A stretch of 64,000 nucleotides of DNA from a phage. Under the pieces are notes generated by a model. The model was not told the DNA's origin and searched no databases. It saw nothing but the letters and a program-made list of their open reading frames with translations. The stretch lies in the sequence record OR896157.1; one strand, given 5' to 3'. Each line of letters begins with the position of its first letter. The first letter of the stretch is position 1. The translations under genes and the position numbers were made by a program. Below, piece after piece: positions 10,428 to 51,377 of this stretch.

Positions 10428-10542
10428 TTCTTTTTCCTCAATTTAAGACGGCGATGTGGAAGTTTTATTTTAATCGCAGATGTATGTTCTCTTTTACCTG
10501 ATATTTGAATCCAGTTAATTTTCATATTTCACCTCAAAGAGA

Positions 10543-10566
10543 TTATATTCTATACTCCAGAAAGCA
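10543..10566 (-). promoter_or_regulatory. candidate MotA-type middle promoter upstream of 47/46
   Basis: minus-strand TGCTTT box, 12-nt spacer, TATAAT. Confidence 0.4.
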
Positions 10567-10567
10567 G

Positions 10568-10587
10568 AAAGGGCCCGAAGGCCCTTT
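10568..10587 (-). terminator. GC hairpin AAAGGGCC-UUCG-GGCCCUUU; copy 2 of 4
   Basis: identical palindrome GGGCCCGAAGGCCC; downstream of ORF 10586-10774. Confidence 0.5.
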
Positions 10588-10774
10588 AAATTTTACTGTA
10601 TGTGATAGTTACTTCGGCTTTTGCTTTATCATATGACATCTTGAACCGCCTCATCATTTCAGTCTTGCCGTTATGAATCTTTGCATAATCAATAGCTCTT
10701 TCTAAAGCTTCAGCCGAATAAACAGTTCCGTTGCGGGATACTACAGCAGCTTTTAATATTACAGCTTCCACCAT
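10586..10774 (-). CDS. hypothetical protein
   Basis: 62-aa ORF in 47-55 interval. Confidence 0.4.
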   Translation of the reverse strand: MVEAVILKAAVVSRNGTVYSAEALERAIDYAKIHNGKTEMMRRFKMSYDKAKAEVTITYSKI

Positions 10775-10968
10775 GGCTTCACCATAATTGTATCAGCCCA
10801 GACTAATTCCTTTTTAGTAGCTTTAACTACTGGATTGATAGGACCGGTTTCACCCAAGACTTTGTAATGGGTTTCAGATACTTTAATAGCCATTACACCA
10901 TCAGCAACAGACAAAGTGAAACCTGCGTTTACTTTCAGACGTTTGAATTTAACCTGCTTTATAGCCAT
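10759..10968 (-). CDS. hypothetical protein
   Basis: 69-aa ORF in 47-55 interval. Confidence 0.4.
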   Translation of the reverse strand: MAIKQVKFKRLKVNAGFTLSVADGVMAIKVSETHYKVLGETGPINPVVKATKKELVWADTIMVKPWWKL

Positions 10969-11317
10969 TTAAAATTTCCCAGATCTGACGACGAGTGGTT
11001 TCCCATTGGACTTTGATAAGCTCGTCATTGAATGGTTGACGTAAGATTTTACGAGATTTTTCAATCGCATACTTATACGCCGCGAAGTTGTTATCGAGAA
11101 CTGATTGCTGAGCATGTTTGTTCAAACGTTCAAGTTCGCGACTATTTTTCTTGATAATTTTATCAGCTTTAGATTTAGCATTTGCTGCAATTCGAGCTTG
11201 TGCTTCTTCAATAGCTGCAAGACGATCTTCTTCCATTAATTTCTGATGGTCTGGATCTTCAATCAACTGGTCTTGATATTCAAGTTCTGCTTTGAATGCT
11301 TCGCCTGGTTGTAGCAT
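10949..11317 (-). CDS. hypothetical coiled-coil protein
   Basis: 122-aa ORF, charged helical sequence. Confidence 0.45.
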   Translation of the reverse strand: MLQPGEAFKAELEYQDQLIEDPDHQKLMEEDRLAAIEEAQARIAANAKSKADKIIKKNSRELERLNKHAQQSVLDNNFAAYKYAIEKSRKILRQPFNDELIKVQWETTRRQIWEILNGYKAG

Positions 11318-11323
11318 AATTCC

Positions 11324-11578
11324 TCATTCTGGAAAGTATTCTAATGTGATATAAAAATCATCATCAGATATATGGTAATTGTAGTTCAAGTCTTTGCCAT
11401 CGCACTTGAACTCTGTATCATGTGGGTTCTTGGGGTCGATGTGAATGTCCAAATCCAATACCTCCCTCATATACATTTTAAGCAAATAAGGGATAGCATC
11501 GTAATCGGGCACTTCTTCTAAAAATCCTGCGAGGTTAATCGTCAGCCTCATATAAAAAATCCAAACTTGGACCTTCAT
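11324..11578 (-). CDS. hypothetical protein
   Basis: 84-aa ORF downstream of gene 55; listed start overlaps 55, true start probably internal. Confidence 0.4.
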
Positions 11579-13303: not shown

Positions 13304-13570
13304 TTAGCAGTTTTTAATATGCTCGTAGATAGCACGAGTCAGTTCAGATGCTTCTTCTTTGTTGATGTCTGAAATCAAAGCGTAGATAGCATTAGTGATT
13401 GAACTTGGGCGATGGCGCGCAGTGCTGATTGCAACTTCTGTCATACAAGAACGTCCGCGGAAGATGATTTCAACATTGTTGATTTCAATATTCATGCGTT
13501 CTTGGTCACGGGATTCAGAACGTACCAGAACTTCCAGTTCAACAGAAACTTTCTTTTTCAGTAAAATCAT
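13304..13570 (-). CDS. hypothetical protein (88 aa)
   Basis: track ORF trimmed to ATG at 13570 preceded by AAGGAG; the longer listed start would run through the terminator and promoter. Confidence 0.5.
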   Translation of the reverse strand: MILLKKKVSVELEVLVRSESRDQERMNIEINNVEIIFRGRSCMTEVAISTARHRPSSITNAIYALISDINKEEASELTRAIYEHIKNC

Positions 13571-13597
13571 GTTACTCTCCTTGGTTGATATAAGAGT

Positions 13598-13627
13598 ATA
13601 GTAACACCTTCTGCAACAGATGTAAAC
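13598..13627 (-). promoter_or_regulatory. T4-type early promoter (GTTTAC-N18-TACTAT)
   Basis: minus-strand -35 GTTTAC and -10 TACTAT with 18-nt spacer. Confidence 0.6.
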
Positions 13628-13630
13628 GGT

Positions 13631-13664
13631 CATAGAAATAAAAATGGGGACCACCAGGGTCCCC
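13631..13664 (-). terminator. intrinsic terminator (7-bp GC stem + U-run)
   Basis: minus-strand GGGGACC-CUGGU-GGUCCCC followed by AUUUUUAUUU. Confidence 0.6.
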
Positions 13665-13715
13665 GAAGATGTGAGCCATATGTTTATATGGACTTCAAAA
13701 GAAAGTGTCTTAGAG

Positions 13716-14025
13716 TTAATCCAGTGAATCGAGGTCGTAACCTAGTTCACCAAGTCTCTCTTTTATTGTTCTTAGATTTGGGTAATATACACCACCGAGG
13801 ATGACGACCGGGTAATTGACTCGCTTGCTTGGGAAAACTCCTGAGGCTTTAGCGGCTTCTTCAATCGCTTTGTAGTTGTATTGGACCGGCCATGTAGATA
13901 ACGTCGATGAACTCATACGGAATTTTGAATTCGTCAAAAATTTCTTTGACCGTTGCGCAACCAGCGCAGCGGTAGACGTCTTCCGGAATTCCATAAATTT
14001 TAGCTCTTAGTTGTGAGTTTTCCAT
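13716..14025 (-). pseudogene. nrdH: NrdH/NrdC-like glutaredoxin split across two reading frames (frameshift)
   Basis: frame A: KIYGIPEDVYRCAGCATVKEIFDEFKIPYEFIDV (CxxC half); frame B: AIEEAAKASGVFPSKRVNYPVVILGGVYYPNL (cis-Pro/GG half); at nrdH position. Confidence 0.5.
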
Positions 14026-14275
14026 TGACTGTAACCTCAAGCTTATCATCTAAACCAATATCCTTAAGCGCATCAGTCATTCGACGAATACGAGCAGTAA
14101 CTTCTTCGGGAGAAAGTTTAGGTTTATCATCGGTCTTAGGAGCGATAATCACTGCCAGTCCGAATACCAAAAGTGCAGGTACAGCAACAATGATTCCGTA
14201 AGCAATAACAAGATAAGCCAGAAGCTTAGATAAAGCAGTACGAGTCCCGTTGAAGAAAGATTTGATGTATTTCAT
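14000..14275 (-). CDS. hypothetical membrane protein
   Basis: 91-aa ORF with one strong hydrophobic helix. Confidence 0.45.
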   Translation of the reverse strand: MKYIKSFFNGTRTALSKLLAYLVIAYGIIVAVPALLVFGLAVIIAPKTDDKPKLSPEEVTARIRRMTDALKDIGLDDKLEVTVNGKLTTKS

Positions 14276-14374
14276 GTTTTTCCTTAGGAGAAAGTTACGA
14301 TACCAGCGAAAACGTACAGAGCAGGGAATTCTTCGCCCCAGCTTTGAATGATGAAGTTTGCGTTTAGTGCGAGT

Positions 14375-14860
14375 TTATTCAGGATGTTCATTGTGTTCCT
14401 CATTCCAAGTTCCGCTGTTAATCCACAGCCTTTGATTGTCACTGCCTCTCCAAAGCTTTTTAGTTGGTAGAGACTGTTCATATTTACCATCGATAATAAC
14501 ATCAACATAATTTAGCAGTTCCAAGTCCTTGATATCTTCGAACTTGTAGCCCGTCCACATCCAAACATCTTTATGAGGATGACTAGTGTGTAAGCACTTA
14601 AGTAGTGCTTCTATAGTTTCTCTGTTGTCTGGATAAAGAGGGTCTCCACCTGTAAGAGTGATTCCTTGAATGTAATCTTTGCTTAAAAGCTCTCTGATTT
14701 CTCCAATGGTTTCACCGGTGAATTCTGTTCCATTACGCGGATTCCATGTAGATTTATTGTAACATCCTTCACATTTATGCAAACACCCGGTGACAAAAAG
14801 AACGACCCTGCAACCAGGGCCATTCACAAAATCACAAGGATAGATTCTGTCATACTTCAC
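14375..14860 (-). CDS. nrdG: anaerobic ribonucleotide reductase activating protein NrdG (radical SAM)
   Basis: 161-aa ORF; cysteine cluster CLHKCEGC; directly downstream of nrdD. Confidence 0.9.
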   Translation of the reverse strand: MKYDRIYPCDFVNGPGCRVVLFVTGCLHKCEGCYNKSTWNPRNGTEFTGETIGEIRELLSKDYIQGITLTGGDPLYPDNRETIEALLKCLHTSHPHKDVWMWTGYKFEDIKDLELLNYVDVIIDGKYEQSLPTKKLWRGSDNQRLWINSGTWNEEHNEHPE

Positions 14861-16679
14861 AGTGCTTTGTCCTATGCATTATTTCTTTGTTTTTACCAAG
14901 ATTAAATCCACGTTCAGATGGATTGCCAAGATATCCACAAGTGCGTCGTATTGTGTTCATCTTTTTAGGGTCTGATTCACCACATTCATGACAGACAAAT
15001 CCATCTTCCGTTGGAGTCATTTCATGAGTTGAACCGCATGTAAAGCACTTATCAACTGGCATGTTTACACCGAAGTAATCAAGATGCTCAACAGCATAAT
15101 CCCACACTGCTTCAAGACCTTTAAGGTTGTTCTTCATATCAGGAAGTTCTACATAACTGATATGACCACCCTTAGCGATGAAGTGGAAAATAGCTTCACG
15201 GTCAATTTTACCAAATGGAGAAATCTTTTCTTCTACTGAAACATGGAAACTGTTGGTGTACCACCCTTTATCGGTGACGCCTTTGATATCACCATGGACT
15301 TCAGCGTCAATCTTACAGAAGCGATAGCACAAATTCTCTGCTGGAGTTGAATAAAGACTAAAAGCAAAGCCAGTCTCTTTAGTCCATTCAGCAAGATAAT
15401 CATTCAGGCATTTCAGAAGAAGCTTACCGATATCAGCACCCAATAGAGTTTGAACTTCATGGATTCCGATGTACCCTAACGAAATTGAAGAACGACCATT
15501 TCGGAAGATGTCGAGAATCTCATCGTTTGGCTTAAGACGAACACCAAAAGCACCTTCTTGATAAAGAATAGGAGCTACAGAAGCTGTTACACCACGAAGT
15601 GATTCAATACGAGCTAAAAGAGCTTCTTTACAAATCTTCAAACGGTCATCAAGAATGTGGAAGAACTTGGTCAAGTCTGGACGGCCATCAACCATACAAT
15701 CGAGTGCTACTCGTGGTAGGTTAATTGTCACTACACCAAGATTATTACGACCATCGAGAATTTCTTCGCCGTCTTTGTTCTTCCATACGCCCAGGAATGA
15801 GCGACATCCCATTGGAGAAACTGGAACAGAAGAGCCAGTGATTAGACGGTTATTCTTTGAACTAATGATGTCAGGATACATTCGCTTACTTGCACATTCC
15901 AATGCAAGTTGTTTGATGTCATAGTTCACATCAGTAGGATGAAGGTTAATTCCTTCTTCAACAAACATAACGAGCTTAGGAAAAATCGGAGTGATTCCGT
16001 CTCGTCCAAGACCTTTGATTCTATTTTTGAGAATAGCTTTTTGAATCATTCGTTCATAATCGCTTGTACCAGTACCAAAGGTAATTGTCACGAATGGAGT
16101 TTGTCCATTTGAACTGAACAAAGTATTGACTTCATATTCATAAGCTTGGAATGCGTCGTATACGTCTTTTTCTGTTTTCTCAATCGCGTATACATAGTCA
16201 TTGACATGCTCAATGCCGTATCTTTCTGCATCGTGTAAATGCTTAAAGAAAGTCTTCTCTACAAAAGGAGCAAGTACAACATCAACATTAGCAAATGTCG
16301 TTCCACCATATTGATGTGAAGCTACTTGAGCAGTGATTTGAGCCATAATAGCAGTTGCTACACCAATTGACTTTGGAGTCTCAATTTGAGCATTACCAAG
16401 TTTAAATCCATTGCTGAGCATACCCTTCAAATCGACTAAGCAACAGTTAGTGAATGGAAGAGCTGGAGAATAGTCTAAGTCATGAAAATGAATAAGACCT
16501 TTATCATGAGCATTTAGAACAGTAGGAGAGATAACCTGACGAGCAATGTGTTTTGAAACAATTCCTGCCATCAGGTCTCGTTGAGTTGGAAAAACACGAG
16601 AATCTTTATTAGCATTCTCGTTTAGTAAGTCTTTGTTGGTGCGGTTGATTAAACCCTGGATTTCTGATTCAATTGTCAT
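14850..16679 (-). CDS. nrdD: anaerobic ribonucleoside-triphosphate reductase NrdD (uninterrupted, no intron)
   Basis: 609-aa ORF; C-terminal zinc ribbon CxxC...CxxC and glycyl-radical motif RTCGYLG. Confidence 0.95.
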   Translation of the reverse strand: MTIESEIQGLINRTNKDLLNENANKDSRVFPTQRDLMAGIVSKHIARQVISPTVLNAHDKGLIHFHDLDYSPALPFTNCCLVDLKGMLSNGFKLGNAQIETPKSIGVATAIMAQITAQVASHQYGGTTFANVDVVLAPFVEKTFFKHLHDAERYGIEHVNDYVYAIEKTEKDVYDAFQAYEYEVNTLFSSNGQTPFVTITFGTGTSDYERMIQKAILKNRIKGLGRDGITPIFPKLVMFVEEGINLHPTDVNYDIKQLALECASKRMYPDIISSKNNRLITGSSVPVSPMGCRSFLGVWKNKDGEEILDGRNNLGVVTINLPRVALDCMVDGRPDLTKFFHILDDRLKICKEALLARIESLRGVTASVAPILYQEGAFGVRLKPNDEILDIFRNGRSSISLGYIGIHEVQTLLGADIGKLLLKCLNDYLAEWTKETGFAFSLYSTPAENLCYRFCKIDAEVHGDIKGVTDKGWYTNSFHVSVEEKISPFGKIDREAIFHFIAKGGHISYVELPDMKNNLKGLEAVWDYAVEHLDYFGVNMPVDKCFTCGSTHEMTPTEDGFVCHECGESDPKKMNTIRRTCGYLGNPSERGFNLGKNKEIMHRTKHCEV

Positions 16680-18069: not shown

Positions 18070-18243
18070 ATTCACCTCGTAAAGTTTCAAGAACTTCATC
18101 ATCAACCCAAGATTCTAAACCACTTGGAAGAGAACGTTCGACTTCCCAAAGTAAAGCTTCGCATTCGCGAAGACGAGCAAGCTCAGCAGAGCAAATTACT
18201 TCTTCTGTCTTTGGGTCAATCAATACAGAGTTCAGACTCATTT
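18070..18243 (-). CDS. hypothetical small protein (57 aa, not in track)
   Basis: manual translation: MSLNSVLIDPKTEEVICSAELARLRECEALLWEVERSLPSGLESWVDDEVLETLRGE; fills an otherwise empty 170-nt gap. Confidence 0.3.
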
Positions 18244-18534
18244 CAAATATTCCTTCAATTCAGTAAATCCACCGATAGGCGAACCTTTTTCATCAAAAAT
18301 CTGGGGCATTGTCAAACCAACACGAGATGGTCTATTCAGACGCGTCAGAAGCTCAGAGATAACTTCTTCATTAAAGATTGGTGTACCATCTTCATTATTA
18401 CCTGAAGTCACAGAGATGAACTCGTAATCTTTACGTTTAGCATCTAACAGACGCTTAGAGTTAATGCATGGAACACATTTAAAATGCTTGCTGTCGTAAC
18501 CGAAAACCTTGAATGTCACTAGAGATGTCCTCAA
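18238..18534 (-). CDS. nrdC: thioredoxin/glutaredoxin NrdC
   Basis: 98-aa ORF resembling remembered T4 NrdC (FKVFGYDS..KCVPC, GLTMPQIF, GGFTELKEY). Confidence 0.85.
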   Translation of the reverse strand: MRTSLVTFKVFGYDSKHFKCVPCINSKRLLDAKRKDYEFISVTSGNNEDGTPIFNEEVISELLTRLNRPSRVGLTMPQIFDEKGSPIGGFTELKEYLK

Positions 18535-18772: not shown

Positions 18773-19062
18773 AATTCTGTAACTCGTTTATAAGCTTCAT
18801 GAGCTGCGATTGCAATCTTCTCATTAATATCAAGAGAAGTTTCAGGTTGATTATTTAACTGATGGCAAGCGTATGTTTTAAACATTATAACATCGAAATC
18901 AACCATTGCACTAATGCTTCGGTGAACGTGGTCCATATTCAGTTCTACACCTTTTTCTTCAGCGTACTGAAGACAGATTCTAGCGTTAATTTCACGAAGC
19001 TCCTTGAATAAGGATTTCAATTCAGGAGAATCAGCAATTGCTTCACCTTTAAATGGATTCAT
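18769..19062 (-). CDS. hypothetical protein
   Basis: 97-aa ORF. Confidence 0.45.
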   Translation of the reverse strand: MNPFKGEAIADSPELKSLFKELREINARICLQYAEEKGVELNMDHVHRSISAMVDFDVIMFKTYACHQLNNQPETSLDINEKIAIAAHEAYKRVTEL

Positions 19063-19394
19063 TTGACCGCCTTAACGCCAGAAATGTTACGGATAGCTTC
19101 GTGTACTTCATCGAAGTCTTCTTTATTGACTGTAACTACCAGAGTTCGAGTAGTTTGTTTCTTTTTCCAGCGTTTGAAGAAAGTTTCTAAACGAAGGTCA
19201 TGAGCAGCAAAACTATCTTCGTCATTTTTGTAAACATAACCAGATTCGATTTCAACTACTGTGTATGGAGATGGGTTTTCATATTCTTCTACTTCTACAC
19301 CATCAAATAAGATTAGTGTATCATCGTGGTAATAACCTTCCCAGAAGGCTTCATCGTTATAGAATTCTTTCCAAAGTGCACCAGTAGTTTTCAT
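19059..19394 (-). CDS. hypothetical protein
   Basis: 111-aa ORF. Confidence 0.45.
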   Translation of the reverse strand: MKTTGALWKEFYNDEAFWEGYYHDDTLILFDGVEVEEYENPSPYTVVEIESGYVYKNDEDSFAAHDLRLETFFKRWKKKQTTRTLVVTVNKEDFDEVHEAIRNISGVKAVK

Positions 19395-19906
19395 TTCTTC
19401 ACCTCAGGAAATGCAGCTTCAATACGTTTAGCAATTGCTTTATCAAGACATTCACCGAAATTAGCATTTAAACGAGCAACTACTAGTTCTTCCCAGCGGT
19501 GTTCAGTCATTCGCATAGTGTCTTCAATGCGGTTTTCTAACTTTTTGACTGCTTCATCAATAATTTTAACAATTCGGTCTTGAATTGCATTAGCAGCTAC
19601 TCGTTCAGCTTCTTTATGCATGCGAGAATCAAGTTCCATCGTTGATTCAACATCGTTCCAACCTTTCTTTGTAAAGAAATCCTGGAGTTGATTCTTAATA
19701 GCCGCGTTTACATTAGGAATTCGAGCTCCAAGTAATTCAATTTCCTGCGAAACTGCTTTACGAATTTTGTTATCAGAGTCTTTAAGCACCATCTCTTTGA
19801 CGATGTTCTGAATAACTGACTGTTGCAAGGCGGCACGAATTTCAGTGCCTTCTGGGAACAGTTGACGAATTGTGTTGGTATCTAATTTTAAATCAATGAG
19901 TGACAT
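19391..19906 (-). CDS. hypothetical protein
   Basis: 171-aa ORF. Confidence 0.45.
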   Translation of the reverse strand: MSLIDLKLDTNTIRQLFPEGTEIRAALQQSVIQNIVKEMVLKDSDNKIRKAVSQEIELLGARIPNVNAAIKNQLQDFFTKKGWNDVESTMELDSRMHKEAERVAANAIQDRIVKIIDEAVKKLENRIEDTMRMTEHRWEELVVARLNANFGECLDKAIAKRIEAAFPEVKK

Positions 19907-19918
19907 AACAATTTCCTC

Positions 19919-20344
19919 TTAAATATCTGAATTCATCCAATCAATTGCTGATTGAGGTAAACATACTATCACAGAAAAGAATAAAGCAAGTACATAAGTG
20001 ATAACATAAAGGAATGCTGAACCAAATGACCAAGCAGCATTCCAGCCTTGACGATACTCTGAATAGATTAACTCAGGTCGTATTTCCAAATCGTACATTG
20101 AACCAACTTGTGCCATGCTATAAAATGCAGGTGAAATTTCTCTGTCAAATCTTCGACCATTTTGGTCTTCATAAACAGCAATGAATTCCAGATGAGAATA
20201 TTTTCCAGTTGAAGTTCCGGAATAAAGTTGAACTAATTCTGCTTTAACGAGCTGTTCCTTTGAAAAGTCAGGACGCACATCAGTAAAAATAGAGAAACAC
20301 CAAAAGCAAATTGCCGCTACAAGAAATTTCATGCGAGTTGTCAT
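19919..20344 (-). CDS. hypothetical membrane protein
   Basis: 141-aa ORF with N- and C-terminal hydrophobic helices. Confidence 0.45.
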   Translation of the reverse strand: MTTRMKFLVAAICFWCFSIFTDVRPDFSKEQLVKAELVQLYSGTSTGKYSHLEFIAVYEDQNGRRFDREISPAFYSMAQVGSMYDLEIRPELIYSEYRQGWNAAWSFGSAFLYVITYVLALFFSVIVCLPQSAIDWMNSDI

Positions 20345-26342: not shown

Positions 26343-26560
26343 TTAAACTAATTCTAAAATTTCGTTGATGTAGTAAGGACGAACTTTAGAGTCCAAGAAG
26401 AACTCATCAACGAAGTCAATCAGTTCGTCAGTAGTACCAAAGATGTTTGCTAATTTAGAAAAAACTTCCCCGACCATCAAAGCTTCAAATTTAACATTGT
26501 ACTGACGAGCTACTTCTTCGGCTTTTGCAACGTTGTTTACTACGATTTGTAAAGTTTTCA
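26343..26560 (-). CDS. hypothetical protein (72 aa)
   Basis: track ORF trimmed to ATG at 26560 with GGAGA SD. Confidence 0.5.
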
Positions 26561-26589
26561 TTTTGTTCTCCTTTGGTTTTGATAGTGCT

Positions 26590-26619
26590 ATAATACCATA
26601 TGCTATAGCACTTGTAAAC
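26590..26619 (-). promoter_or_regulatory. T4-type early promoter (GTTTAC-N18-TATTAT)
   Basis: minus-strand motifs; AGTGCTATA...TATAGCACT dyad around -10. Confidence 0.6.
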
Positions 26620-26626
26620 AATATTT

Positions 26627-26911
26627 TTAAGCAATGTATGGAGTTGCTGAACCGTCTGAATAACGCGCCCATACTTCGTTGCCGACGTTGAAAAGTTTTG
26701 CTTTACGACCGTTAGGCATCTGAACCATTTTGCTTTTAACCGGAGTTACAGCTTCAATCAAAGTTCCAGCAGCTTTTGCATTTTCTTTAGTTTTAAGAAT
26801 TTTTTCCATGTATTCAACGTATTCGATGATAGCAGGTGCCATATGCTGTTTGTGGCCCATACCGCCAAAATCGAATTCAGTTACTGCGTAGAAAGTTTTT
26901 GAAGTAGCCAT
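26627..26911 (-). CDS. hypothetical protein
   Basis: 94-aa ORF. Confidence 0.5.
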   Translation of the reverse strand: MATSKTFYAVTEFDFGGMGHKQHMAPAIIEYVEYMEKILKTKENAKAAGTLIEAVTPVKSKMVQMPNGRKAKLFNVGNEVWARYSDGSATPYIA

Positions 26912-26952
26912 TTTATTATCCTTGATTTTTGTTACCGTTTAGTTGATAGAGA

Positions 26953-27030: not shown

Positions 27031-27291
27031 TTATTTTGAGTGTTTTTCTAGCTGACGTTCAGCAAACAGCTTTGGCTGCATTAACAACCAACTTAAGATA
27101 CGCCAGATGACTTGTATGACACCGACAGGTAGCCATAATATAATACTAAACAAGTAATTAAAAGGTGTCTCTATGAACCCTCGTTTAACGAGAGCGTTTG
27201 TGATGAGCCACCCGACGGCTAGATAAACCAATACAATAAAGACGGGCATAATCCACCATAGTTGAGCCAAAAGTAAAGTAACCATAATCAC
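27031..27291 (-). CDS. hypothetical membrane protein
   Basis: 86-aa ORF, two hydrophobic helices. Confidence 0.5.
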   Translation of the reverse strand: MIMVTLLLAQLWWIMPVFIVLVYLAVGWLITNALVKRGFIETPFNYLFSIILWLPVGVIQVIWRILSWLLMQPKLFAERQLEKHSK

Positions 27292-28298
27292 CTGTAGTAA
27301 GAGTTGTGGTTCGCCAGATAAACTTCTTCAAGGAACTTGTCCCAGAATGTCATGTCAACTTTATCAGGCATACCGTTTTTAGAAGCGATGATGCTTTGAC
27401 GTTCAACTTCATCTACACAGTTTTCTAACCACTCTTGAACTTCTTTGAATGGAATAGTGCCGGCTTTAACTTTCTTGATGAACTCAGCATCTTTAAGCGG
27501 ATAAACCAAATCACCGGTTGTGTAGATTTCCTGGAGCTGAAGACCACCACGAAGAGCATGAGACAGAGCTTTCCAGTCTACACCTTCGTTAGCTTCTGCT
27601 TTACGAGCACGTTCACCGTATTCGTTCCAGAGCTTAGTAAGACTGTATTTCATTTCGGCAACAGTGATTGTTGTCTGGAATTTACGACCAAGCACGTTGT
27701 AGAACTTCTGAACGCCAGATTTGTGGTCAACAAAATCAGTCCACTCAAGGAACTCTGAAGTTGGAAGCAGATGAGCAATATCAGCAACTTTCCAACGAAC
27801 ATTGTGAGCTTTATCTTTTGGACGGTCTTCGTATTTCCATTCTGGATAAGGCTCTAATACTTCAAGAACTTTACGAAGTTCAGCTAAACGAGAACCTTTG
27901 ACACCATACTTAGCTGCTTGCTTACGAACATAACCAAGATAAGCTTTCATATCGGTGGTGTAGAAACGCCAGCGGTTGTCTTGGATAAATTTCCAGACAT
28001 CAGGCAGGTCAGATTTAACAATCAGATTAGCAGGAGTATGAAGCATATCAAGAGCAACAGTTTCTCCTGACTGAGCGAGTTCCAACCAATACTTGAGAGA
28101 ATAGAGTTCATGGTCAACGTCATCGTGAGAATTCTTTGTTGAAGTGTTGTTAGTATTCATATTAGTATGGTTCATTGCACGACCCATAAGAATATCTTTT
28201 GGGTGTGGAACGAAGATTTCTTTGAAGTCCGTGTCACTTTCTGGTGTTGACGTACCGTAAAGATGGCTACCGAAGTAGCCTTTCATAACTGTTTTCAT
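27288..28298 (-). CDS. nucleotidyltransferase-fold protein (Pol-beta superfamily motif GS-x9-DxD)
   Basis: 336-aa ORF; N-terminal FGSHLYGTSTPESDTDF; helical C-terminal domain. Confidence 0.5.
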   Translation of the reverse strand: MKTVMKGYFGSHLYGTSTPESDTDFKEIFVPHPKDILMGRAMNHTNMNTNNTSTKNSHDDVDHELYSLKYWLELAQSGETVALDMLHTPANLIVKSDLPDVWKFIQDNRWRFYTTDMKAYLGYVRKQAAKYGVKGSRLAELRKVLEVLEPYPEWKYEDRPKDKAHNVRWKVADIAHLLPTSEFLEWTDFVDHKSGVQKFYNVLGRKFQTTITVAEMKYSLTKLWNEYGERARKAEANEGVDWKALSHALRGGLQLQEIYTTGDLVYPLKDAEFIKKVKAGTIPFKEVQEWLENCVDEVERQSIIASKNGMPDKVDMTFWDKFLEEVYLANHNSYYR

Positions 28299-28858: not shown

Positions 28859-29080
28859 CTATAAGAAGCGCCATGAGCCATTACGATATGCAACTGAACG
28901 GTCCATCATTTCGGAAGAGGTAGAACTTCCGCTGAGTTTGTCATGAACTACTGTAATTTTGCGTCCGTCAGCAAAAATAAATTCGGCTACTGGACGCAGG
29001 CCAGTAAAGCCTTTGTCCACAGTTGCATTAAATTTAGCAGATTCACCGTTGATAATATAGTTCTGGTCTTGTTTAAGCAT
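28859..29080 (-). CDS. hypothetical protein
   Basis: 73-aa ORF. Confidence 0.4.
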   Translation of the reverse strand: MLKQDQNYIINGESAKFNATVDKGFTGLRPVAEFIFADGRKITVVHDKLSGSSTSSEMMDRSVAYRNGSWRFL

Positions 29081-29532
29081 TATTTAAATTCCAAAGTTGG
29101 GCAGAACTTCTCTTTGCGAGCTTTAATGAAAGCAATAATGATATTAGGTTGTGGTTCAACGTAAGTACCATTTCTGATAGCTTCCCATTTTTTATCTTCT
29201 TTCTTTTCTTTTCGTCTTTGAACGACTCGATAAATTCCGTAACCAATACAGAAAATTGTACCAAAAATAGCCGCCAACAAAATCCAACCAATAATCATTC
29301 CAGGGACAAATGCTACAGCAGACGAAAGAATCACACCACATTGAGCGAATAACCAAGTAGCTAAATCTACACCACTAGCCCATCCAACAAAAACTACAGC
29401 ACAAACAGCGAATAGCAGGAGGAAAGCATGCCAAACACCTTTCCAAAAATATGGACACAGAGAACGTGGAGCGCTTTCAGCGCCATTCATAGTAACGAGT
29501 TTGTAGTGCCAAGAGTTAGTATTGATTTGCAT
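29080..29532 (-). CDS. hypothetical membrane protein
   Basis: 150-aa ORF with 3-4 predicted TM helices. Confidence 0.5.
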   Translation of the reverse strand: MQINTNSWHYKLVTMNGAESAPRSLCPYFWKGVWHAFLLLFAVCAVVFVGWASGVDLATWLFAQCGVILSSAVAFVPGMIIGWILLAAIFGTIFCIGYGIYRVVQRRKEKKEDKKWEAIRNGTYVEPQPNIIIAFIKARKEKFCPTLEFK

Positions 29533-30260: not shown

Positions 30261-30550
30261 TGCATCTCCTGAATAGCTTTTAAGAAGTTATCAAGATTCT
30301 CTTTACTGCAAAAAGATACGCATCCGTAGCTTCCATCTTTTGCTTCAAAAGTAAATGAATCATCACCATAATCAGTGTAATCAATATTAGGGCATTGATT
30401 GCATTCAATCAGATGTGCTTTGTCCAGACGAAAATGGATTTTGAACAAATCTTCATCGCCTTCATGACCAAGTTTGCAAAAGTTTCCACGTACTTCAAGA
30501 ACCAGAGGACCATGTACTGAACCGCTTTCAAATGTATATTTCATAATCAC
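30257..30550 (-). CDS. hypothetical protein
   Basis: 97-aa ORF. Confidence 0.45.
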   Translation of the reverse strand: MIMKYTFESGSVHGPLVLEVRGNFCKLGHEGDEDLFKIHFRLDKAHLIECNQCPNIDYTDYGDDSFTFEAKDGSYGCVSFCSKENLDNFLKAIQEMQ

Positions 30551-30816
30551 CTCAATTGCGAATCTTTTGAACCGCGTCTGTTATAAGACGCTTTAATGAT
30601 AGTATCATGTGAGCTTTGGCAAGCTACACAACGAGTGCATCCTTTTTGAGCTTTGCGTCTAGCTTCCGGAATTTCTCCGTCACAATCTTCACAGTATTTT
30701 TCACTCTCACGATTTTGAGATTTGATGAGCTCTAAACGAGCCCATTCAATTCCATCACTTACTGTAGCCTCAATAGCTGCAAATCCGTCGTCACTTGGAC
30801 CCCATCCACTTGCCAT
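30547..30816 (-). CDS. hypothetical zinc-ribbon protein
   Basis: 89-aa ORF with CEDCDG...CTRCVAC. Confidence 0.5.
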   Translation of the reverse strand: MASGWGPSDDGFAAIEATVSDGIEWARLELIKSQNRESEKYCEDCDGEIPEARRKAQKGCTRCVACQSSHDTIIKASYNRRGSKDSQLR

Positions 30817-30840
30817 TACAAACTCCTTTGAACGAGGTCT

Positions 30841-30870
30841 ATTATACCATTAACTAAGTTGTATGTAAAC
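30841..30870 (-). promoter_or_regulatory. T4-type early promoter (GTTTAC-N18-TATAAT)
   Basis: minus-strand motifs. Confidence 0.6.
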
Positions 30871-35982: not shown

Positions 35983-36255
35983 TCAGTAGTTATGGTCATC
36001 GTAGAACACTTGAAGCAGAACATTGCTACGCAGCTTCTTGGTGTCCGCGATGCGTTGACGGAGCTTTGAGATTTTGTCCTGAACAGCATTGAAAGCATCA
36101 GAAGTCTTAGGGTCATGAAGACCCATAGACTCATCCACAAGCTGCTCCATCTTTTCTTCCATAGCATTGATAGCTTCGGAGAAAGACTCGGAGACTTTGT
36201 TGCGGATAGACATTAATACTTTTCTTCTGGTTGAAATACTGAACGGCATGCCCAC
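35983..36255 (-). CDS. hypothetical protein
   Basis: 90-aa ORF. Confidence 0.45.
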   Translation of the reverse strand: MGMPFSISTRRKVLMSIRNKVSESFSEAINAMEEKMEQLVDESMGLHDPKTSDAFNAVQDKISKLRQRIADTKKLRSNVLLQVFYDDHNY

Positions 36256-36494
36256 ATAGAAGCTTCTTTCAAACGATCAATTGCATTACGAATCTGAGTG
36301 ATTCTAGAATGAGCTAGATCGAATTCTTCGTCGCTTATAGTGTCAACATCCAAGTCCATGTAAACTTTGACATGCTCTTCTTCTAAGGCTTTGAAAATCA
36401 AGCCAAGACGTAATTCAGCATCTTTGATAGCGTTCACTTTACCAATTTTGTCATCAGTGTGTGGTTTATAGCCTTTGATATCTTCAATTGACAT
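36213..36494 (-). CDS. hypothetical protein
   Basis: 93-aa ORF. Confidence 0.45.
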   Translation of the reverse strand: MSIEDIKGYKPHTDDKIGKVNAIKDAELRLGLIFKALEEEHVKVYMDLDVDTISDEEFDLAHSRITQIRNAIDRLKEASMWACRSVFQPEEKY

Positions 36495-38029: not shown

Positions 38030-38170
38030 TCCATCAGCTAGCGGGATTGCTAGGACCCTGATTGTAACTGGCTTTACCGCACTTGGGCTCGACCTTTTCA
38101 CAGGTACCAGAAGCTACTTCACTCAGAGGACACGACGTTCATGAGGAGAGGTCCAGGTTGGCTTTTTGAT
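38030..38170 (-). ncRNA. GC-rich non-coding island (candidate structured RNA)
   Basis: ~140 nt markedly more GC-rich than flanks, no credible ORF on either strand. Confidence 0.25.
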
Positions 38171-38176
38171 TGAAGA

Positions 38177-38473
38177 TTAACTAAACGGGTCGTGAAGCTT
38201 ATTACCAATACGACGGAACACTTTAGCTGCAAATTTATTGGAAGGGTTATCAACCATAATTTTGCGCATGTGACCGGTCGCGACTGTTCGAGCAGCCTTA
38301 TAACCAGCAATGTTATCTTTCAAAGTAATTCGACCTTTTCCTTTAGGGTCGTCAATGGTCACTTTGTAAGTTCCCATATCTTCGCCAGGCTTAATTTCTT
38401 CAATCCAGATATAACCACCTGGAACTCGCTTTTGTTCAGCTGCTTCATTTAAAAATTCATTATAGGTTTTCAT
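38177..38473 (-). CDS. internal head protein (capsid-targeting sequence [11 protein letters not shown])
   Basis: 98-aa ORF from internal ATG; N-terminus matches T4 IP capsid-targeting consensus MKTYxEFIxE; adjacent to e as ipII/ipIII in T4. Confidence 0.6.
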
Positions 38474-44919: not shown

Positions 44920-45118
44920 GTGTTCCTCACATACGATGACCGATTACCAGCTTAGCAGTAGGCCAGTTAGTAACAGAATACTCGATTACGTCTTTGACAT
45001 CTTTAGCTTCAACAATGTCAGTCACATGATATTCATGGGTCACCTGTATTCAGGATTGCACGATAATGAGTAACTTCACCGAAATTGTTAGTAATTTCGT
45101 GGATTGTAGAAGTGTTAA
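44920..45118 (-). pseudogene. small gene split across two frames (30 codons then 38 codons)
   Basis: ATG at 45118 with GGAGA SD and own promoter; frame 0 stops after MKFNTSTIHEITNNFGEVTHYRAILNTGDP, frame +1 continues QVTHEYHVTDIV...GHRM to a stop abutting the next SD. Confidence 0.35.
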
Positions 45119-45160
45119 ATTTCATTTTATTCTCCGATTCAATTTTGTTTTGATGAGGTA

Positions 45161-50898: not shown

Positions 50899-51363
50899 TT
50901 ATTTTATGAACTTATTTATGAATCGTCTAGCTTGAGTATGACTGACTCCAAGTTCATTTGCAAATTTTACTAATGCACCACGTTTTGTGAAATCAATAGA
51001 ATTATATAAATCTATTCTTAAAGCAATTTCATCTGCAGTGAATTTATGAGCATGATTTTCTGATATTTTTATTTTTGTTTCATCAGAATGATTATGTCCA
51101 GTAAAACCAGTAGATACGATTCTTCCATTTGCGCCAGCGTCTTTAGCATTTTGCGCATTAGTTGCGCAATAAATGTTATCCAAAGAATATGGTCCAACAT
51201 CTCCTTTACGACACATACAATAATTATCTGAGGCTCTACCGCGCAAATGATATTTGCCAGTAGCTTTCCACCATGATAGCCATTCATCAAATGTCAGTTT
51301 AAATTCAATACCTCTTGATTTAGCATGCACTTTTTGCATGCGATACTTTTCATAATCTTTCAT
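50899..51363 (-). CDS. putative freestanding homing endonuclease-like protein (nuclease-like N-half, HTH-like C-half) inside the tRNA array
   Basis: 154-aa ORF; N-terminal GIEFKLTFDEW...NYCMCRKGDVGPYSLDNIYCATNAQNAKD, C-terminal helix-turn-helix-like; T4 carries segB at the analogous place. Confidence 0.4.
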   Translation of the reverse strand: MKDYEKYRMQKVHAKSRGIEFKLTFDEWLSWWKATGKYHLRGRASDNYCMCRKGDVGPYSLDNIYCATNAQNAKDAGANGRIVSTGFTGHNHSDETKIKISENHAHKFTADEIALRIDLYNSIDFTKRGALVKFANELGVSHTQARRFINKFIK

Positions 51364-51377
51364 ATTACTCTCATATT

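Follow-up and report, generated by a model that had tools for sequence, protein, structure and literature searches.

A five-base gap in the glutaredoxin-like nrdH gene of a CC31-like T4-type Enterobacter phage

The nrdH locus and its reading frames

We analyzed a stretch of 64,000 nucleotides of the phage sequence record OR896157.1 (hereafter, the window), whose source is a Karamvirus, namely, a CC31-like T4-type Enterobacter phage. Megablast searches with positions 13600-14300 and 1-25000 matched Karamvirus genomes only, at 90-98.6% identity, all of them from CC31-like T4-type Enterobacter, Klebsiella and Cronobacter phages of the Straboviridae; these searches found no record identical to either region. 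On the minus strand of Karamvirus genomes the genes follow the order nrdD, nrdG, a 35-aa ORF, a 91-aa ORF, nrdH, an intergenic region and an 88-aa ORF. The gene order around nrdH in the window is the same as in CC31, PG7, EnC15 and VIPECLOM01, so that the gene lies downstream of nrdD-nrdG in a Straboviridae genome, as do members of the T4-type phage NrdH group.

All genes flanking nrdH are intact. These are, on the minus strand, nrdD (14850..16679), encoding the large subunit of the class III anaerobic RNR (100% identity over 609 aa to VIPECLOM01), nrdG (14375..14860), encoding the class III RNR activase (97.5% identity over 161 aa), the 35-aa ORF (97% identity), and the 91-aa gene immediately upstream of nrdH (14000..14275; phrog_1930 in a relative), the protein of which is 100% identical to that of VIPECLOM01 and the final 26 nt of which overlap the start of nrdH. 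The 88-aa protein on the downstream side is also 100% identical to its VIPECLOM01 counterpart. Farther upstream, a T4-type thioredoxin/glutaredoxin paralogue, nrdC (18238..18519, minus strand), is intact as well, being matched by tblastn at full length and 100% identity to VIPECLOM01 WFG78506, and its orthologue is annotated as nrdC in PG7. On the 3' side of nrdH, a terminator-like GC-rich hairpin (GGGGACC-CTGGT-GGTCCCC, then ATTTTTATTT; 13646..13664, minus strand) lies 52 nt past the stop codon, and a promoter-like site (13626-13598) lies beyond it. This hairpin places nrdH last in its transcription unit.

Alignment to EnC15, SonariX, CC31 and VIPECLOM01 places nrdH itself at 13716..14025 on the minus strand. 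It measures 310 nt in the window versus 315 nt in all relatives, where the orthologues encode 104 aa and are labelled 'glutaredoxin', 'NrdH' or 'thioredoxin domain'. The first-pass annotation had described a glutaredoxin at the NrdH position whose two halves lie in different frames, and the ORF list and three-frame translations do contain all of the elements on which it relied, that is, KIYG, CAGC, EFIDV, VFPSK, PVVILGGVYY and an ATG at 13994. Two mechanical ORFs are found at this locus on the minus strand. The first, of 62 aa (13861-14049), reads MISLRLQSMENSQLRAKIYGIPEDVYRCAGCATVKEIFDEFKIPYEFIDVIYMAGPIQLQSD and then a stop. The second, of 92 aa (13716-13994), is in the +1 frame and begins at the ATG at 13994, with a C-terminal part reading WPVQYNYKAIEEAAKASGVFPSKRVNYPVVILGGVYYPNLRTIKERLGELGYDLDSLD and then a stop; the same frame holds VQYNYKAIEEAAKASGVFPSKRVNYPVVILGGVYYPNLRTIKERLGELGYDLDSLD before its stop, ends at 13716, and has the ATG at 13994 as its sole upstream ATG.

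The N-terminal half does end at a stop, as had been claimed, namely, the TGA at 13861-13863, but its start has to be moved from 14049 to 14025: the ATG at 14049 falls within the gene upstream of nrdH, and according to the annotation in relatives the true start is the ATG at 14025 (MENSQ...), which has a GAGG 9 nt upstream. The resulting truncated frame (13861..14025, minus strand) comprises 54 aa, consisting of 47 native residues, which span beta1, CAGC, alpha1 and beta2, and seven out-of-frame residues (PIQLQSD). Counted from 14025, CAGC occupies residues 20-23 and forms a CxxC active site at the start of helix 1. The C-terminal remnant (13716..13886, minus strand), corresponding to residues 49-104 and the TAA stop, lies in the +1 frame and lacks a separate start codon past the break. 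The same division was obtained by tblastn when the intact 104-aa orthologue of VIPECLOM01 (vB_VIPECLOM01) was searched against the window: residues 1-50 are matched at 14025-13876 with 94% identity, and residues 49-104 at 13886-13719 in the adjacent frame with 100% identity. The pattern as observed is far beyond chance.

Thus, in place of the single uninterrupted ORF of about 100 aa that is found in T4-type NrdH, the window has a 54-aa ORF and an out-of-frame remnant. Judged from its sequence, the locus is a disrupted allele (pseudogene) of the NrdH family rather than a functional member. A complete thioredoxin fold is not encoded in one polypeptide here, as the window product stops after native residue 47; the 54-aa product would contain only the first beta-alpha-beta unit of the fold, with all that follows from Asp48 on missing, including the conserved YPVV/GG segment, the later strands and the C-terminal helix, and should be inactive. 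By analogy with the T4 glutaredoxin, the lost YPVV/GG segment probably holds the cis-proline loop and the last strands. A null allele is the most reasonable reading of the window nrdH.

Family assignment and conservation of nrdH

A match to PHROG 22 'thioredoxin domain' (9.7e-10) is obtained for the CC31 orthologue as well as for the repaired window protein, and the truncated frame matches the same family over residues 6-42. For the Pfam Glutaredoxin family (PF00462), the CC31 orthologue scores 22.7 bits and the repaired window protein 21.4 bits, practically at the cut-off (gathering threshold) of 22.9, the match of the intact protein spanning residues 20-81; the truncated 54-aa ORF matches over residues 19-42 only, with 19.6 bits, which is below the cut-off. 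The C-terminal remnant alone has no match in Pfam or PHROGs. Within NCBIfam, we found only weak matches to the YruB and Uxx-star glutaredoxin-like families (E 0.03-0.04) and none at E <= 0.1 to the bacterial NrdH-redoxin model. Taken together, these profile matches indicate that the gene encodes a T4-type glutaredoxin-like protein and that 'NrdH' is a positional, historical T4 name. The original assignment of a split glutaredoxin at the NrdH position is accordingly borne out by synteny, the annotation of relatives and the PHROG 22 match, with the name to be understood as positional only.

The closest counterparts are the nrdH genes of T4-type phages, such as CC31p065 and PG7_065 ('glutaredoxin NrdH'), with which the window shares the locus order nrdD, nrdG, 35-aa ORF, 91-aa ORF, nrdH and terminator, a DNA identity of 95-98.6%, and, once repaired, a protein identity of 98-99%. 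Unlike them, it is five bases short and codes for no more than native residues 1-47, whereas 33 of 33 database copies are intact. Among solved structures, the best match by sequence is the phage T4 glutaredoxin, also known as 'thioredoxin' (NrdC; PDB 1AAZ, 1ABA, 1DE1/2), with an E-value of about 0.01. Window residues 9-47 align with residues 3-41 of the T4 chain (beta1, CxxC, alpha1 and beta2). However, this similarity is weak and confined to the N-terminal half, and the active site is CAGC in the window nrdH versus CVYC in T4; moreover, the gene that gives this T4 NrdC match is distinct from the window's own intact nrdC. Bacterial NrdH-redoxin, the reductant of the class Ib RNR NrdEF, has in common with the redoxin of the window its small size, a CxxC motif, the thioredoxin fold and a gene located beside RNR genes. 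On the other hand, its family model is unmatched by the window gene, and membership goes with association with nrdI, nrdE and nrdF, whereas the neighbors here are nrdD and nrdG, which belong to a class III rather than a class Ib RNR.

The intact gene is strongly conserved in relatives. Ten Karamvirus orthologues have a mean pS of 0.103 and a mean pN of 0.0043, and the resulting pN/pS of about 0.04 points to strong purifying selection and hence to a functional nrdH in these phages. When the repaired protein was used as a tblastn query, 1138 phage records were matched, and in 1133 of these a match at one location accounts for 80% or more of the protein. We found two window-private substitutions in the 310 nt of nrdH, which is not above the window-wide level of 1.09%: one is synonymous, and the other is A25T beside the CAGC site. 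As this gene shows no further decay in the window, its lesion is either recent or artefactual. The A25T change (window position 13953, codon 25), located right after CAGC, replaces an alanine that is invariant in the ten relatives; it may reflect relaxed selection after inactivation, or may simply be a variant.

The nrdH gene family, its position and its annotation are already known, and it is routine for one isolate to have a frameshift in a non-essential accessory gene. An interrupted nrdH was found in none of 128 RNR-containing phage genomes by Dwivedi et al. (2013; PMC3653736); since their survey concerned intron and intein splits, the frameshift in the window is not made remarkable by it.

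The missing five bases and how they may have been lost

Aligning the locus to related phages, which the first-pass annotation had proposed as a way of locating the indel, resolves the break into a single event. The DNA alignment with EnC15, SonariX, CC31 and VIPECLOM01 contains one clean 5-column gap at 13886/13887 in otherwise near-identical sequences. On the coding strand, relatives read ATGGCCG[GTGAC]GTCCAA, and GTGAC is missing from the window, so that ATGGCCG GTGAC GTCCAATAC in relatives corresponds to ATGGCCG GTCCAATAC in the window. At the deletion junction (13886..13887), relatives have GGAC[GTCAC]CGG on the plus strand and CCG[GTGAC]GTCC on the coding strand; read on the plus strand across the junction, GGAC/CGG is the deleted form and GGACGTCACCGG the form with the five bases. 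A 2-nt repeat (AC..AC on the plus strand, GT..GT on the coding strand) stands on either side of the missing unit, making the exact break ambiguous within 13884-13887, and the unit lies outside any homopolymer.

We then aligned a 71-base query centred on the junction to the matching phage records (n = 33). The query spans 76 bases in all 33 of them and the deletion occurs in none; it is also lacking in VIPECLOM01, EcL8g and PG7, the genomes compared over the whole 64 kb. Two separate small genes in related phages, which would have spoken against a split gene, were not seen, each of the 33 records having a single 315-nt ORF. In addition, neither the junction 25-mer nor k-mers carrying the private A25T change were found in IMG/VR or JGI metagenome contigs, and the protein collection contains no entry for the exact truncated ORF products. 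The window nrdH allele is private to this sequence and unreplicated.

Three origins had been put forward for the break, namely, a sequencing indel, a real pseudogene and a recoding event. The last can be put aside, and between the first two the evidence leans towards a real deletion. We consider it likely that, in this phage lineage, a recent deletion of 5 bp (GTGAC, coding strand) knocked out an otherwise strictly conserved nrdH. A 5-base deletion outside a homopolymer and with microhomology bears the mark of replication or repair and not of a typical platform error; to our knowledge, a deletion of this kind is the typical error of no common platform. Indel counts are consistent with this reading. 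We compared four genomes over the whole 64 kb, scoring as private an indel present relative to all three others. Of the six private indels in the window, two are coding frameshifts and the other four single-base changes, three of them intergenic and the fourth at a gene-content breakpoint; VIPECLOM01, the cleanest relative, has five, EcL8g, the record of which is marked UNVERIFIED, has 11, and PG7 has 20 (19 single-base insertions and one 9-base insertion). With six private indels against five, 11 and 20, the window assembly looks clean rather than error-rich.

An artefact of sequencing, assembly or consensus, in which the phage truly has an intact 315-nt nrdH and the five bases were lost in the deposit, is in our judgement rather unlikely. 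It would account for the preservation of the rest of the gene, whose C-terminal half is 100% identical at the protein level with no excess of substitutions, and for the fact that the allele is found in no independent sequence. The second private frameshift of the window (at about 45037) belongs to the homopolymer class known from sequencing errors. Furthermore, relatives have annotated genes for dCMP hydroxymethylase and glucosyltransferase, so phages of this group probably carry hydroxymethylated and glucosylated DNA, and such modifications could disturb some sequencing chemistries. Against an artefact stand the non-homopolymer nature of the deletion, which is atypical of common platforms, the number of private indels, which is about as low as in the cleanest relative and far below that in PG7, and the location of four of the six private indels outside conserved coding sequence.

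The remaining two readings are both very unlikely. The first is a programmed +1 ribosomal frameshift that yields a full-length glutaredoxin, and its sole point in favor is that the downstream half is in the +1 frame, which is open across the junction. The frame change occurs in none of the 33 relatives, so it is not an evolved feature, and when we inspected 13861-13890 for a slippery sequence and a stimulatory element, neither a known +1 motif nor a homopolymer run was seen. In particular, the 27 nt from the junction to the TGA (GGT CCA ATA CAA CTA CAA AGC GAT TGA) lack slippery motifs of the known +1 types (prfB, Ty) as well as an A/T run suited to transcriptional slippage, and a shifted product would still lack Asp48 and carry substituted residues. 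We therefore give recoding hardly any credence. Least credible of all are two truly separate small genes or a split glutaredoxin with associating halves: mechanical ORFs do exist for both halves, but the 92-aa ORF starts deep inside the first one in another frame, its first roughly 36 residues (the N-terminal third) are out-of-frame sequence, it matches no PHROGs family, and the arrangement is absent from all relatives examined.

If the 5-bp deletion is real, GTGAC would have been lost between the two copies of the 2-nt repeat, through replication slippage or microhomology-mediated repair. Ribosomes starting at the ATG at 14025 would then, as the translation shows, add seven wrong residues to the 47 native ones including CAGC and stop at the TGA at 13861-13863, presumably giving an inactive 54-aa product. 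We infer that such a loss would be tolerated, as nrdH ends its transcription unit and nrdC is intact. With a terminator-like hairpin directly downstream of this last gene, a premature stop would be expected to have no polar effect. The paralogue nrdC might serve as a functional back-up, and the host supplies its own thioredoxins and glutaredoxins. Moreover, the class III RNRs of T4 and E. coli use formate as reductant, so that the T4-type class III enzyme would not depend on a redoxin in this role, and we know of no need for a redoxin in class III RNR turnover. Our search of the literature found no experimentally established function of T4-type NrdH.

In either case, no new mechanism is involved: a gene was recently lost in an ordinary way, or the assembly is in error. 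The finding bears mainly on annotation, where the appropriate label is a disrupted nrdH, marked as a pseudogene or possible sequencing error, in place of two hypothetical proteins. A real deletion would make this isolate a naturally occurring nrdH null among T4-type phages, which could be compared with near-identical intact relatives, offering a modest opportunity to approach the role of a conserved, uncharacterised glutaredoxin-like protein, for example in anaerobic growth. It seems highly improbable that the knock-out is adaptive, having been selected on a particular Enterobacter host or under an NrdH-sensing defence system, or that it and the frameshift at about 45037 both arose from a sequence-directed mutational process, which is conceivable because the coding strand has a GGTGAC hexamer at each of the two lesions.

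Other differences between the window and its relatives

We scanned the window for further two-frame splits by searching the 129 annotated VIPECLOM01 proteins against it with tblastn, and found such a split in two of them, nrdH and a 66-aa hypothetical protein at 44930-45119 (minus strand). The latter reflects a second window-private frameshift (44927-45128, minus strand) with an indel at about 45037, where a C run contains one extra C: the coding strand reads GGTGACCCATG in the window versus GGTGA-CCATG in PG7, fGh-Ecl04, EnA02, KMB19 and VIPECLOM01. The indel splits a 65/66-aa hypothetical gene (phrog_3720, e.6-e.8 region) into a 30-aa ORF and an out-of-frame remainder.

In comparison with VIPECLOM01, the two private frameshift sites (13880-13892 and 45033-45045) appeared to share the motif CCGGTGAC, but PG7, the closest relative at the second site, has CAGGTGAC there, so only the 6-mer GGTGAC is shared (coding strand). 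We estimated the post-hoc chance of such a shared 6-mer at roughly 10%, and the other four private indels are without the motif. The shared hexamer is thus probably a coincidence and not the trace of a systematic process.

A candidate third frameshift at window position 29192 (TT) was rejected, as it is a 2-nt deletion of VIPECLOM01 itself and the window form is common to most relatives. This private deletion lies in an A/T run (window 29080-29532, minus strand; VIPECLOM01 30488-30862) and cuts a 'membrane protein' to 124 aa; the 150-aa form present in the window is common to most Karamvirus genomes. The 20 private indels of the PG7 record (Enterobacter phage, KJ101592.1) fall within about 67 kb, which suggests sequencing errors in this reference and calls for caution in its use as a standard for frameshifts.

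Several differences concern gene content. The denV gene (endonuclease V) is absent from the window at 38167-38177, where VIPECLOM01, PG7 and SonariX have about 470 extra bases; we considered this as a sign of general gene decay and rejected it, since CC31 and many other Karamvirus genomes are also without denV, pointing to a natural presence/absence polymorphism. The alignment with VIPECLOM01 has gaps at window positions 10442-11406, 26347-26926, 36216-36375 and 50905-51369, and some small genes of the relative have no counterpart in the window, for example those at VIPECLOM01 11062-11310, 13389-13652, 27080-27489 and 29070-29495. These alignment gaps are the ordinary accessory-gene flux of T4-type phages. 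Finally, window positions 19001-20000, a region of small ORFs downstream of nrdC, carry 132 private substitutions in 1 kb versus an average of about 11 per kb, and this cluster is probably a mosaic or recombinant segment.
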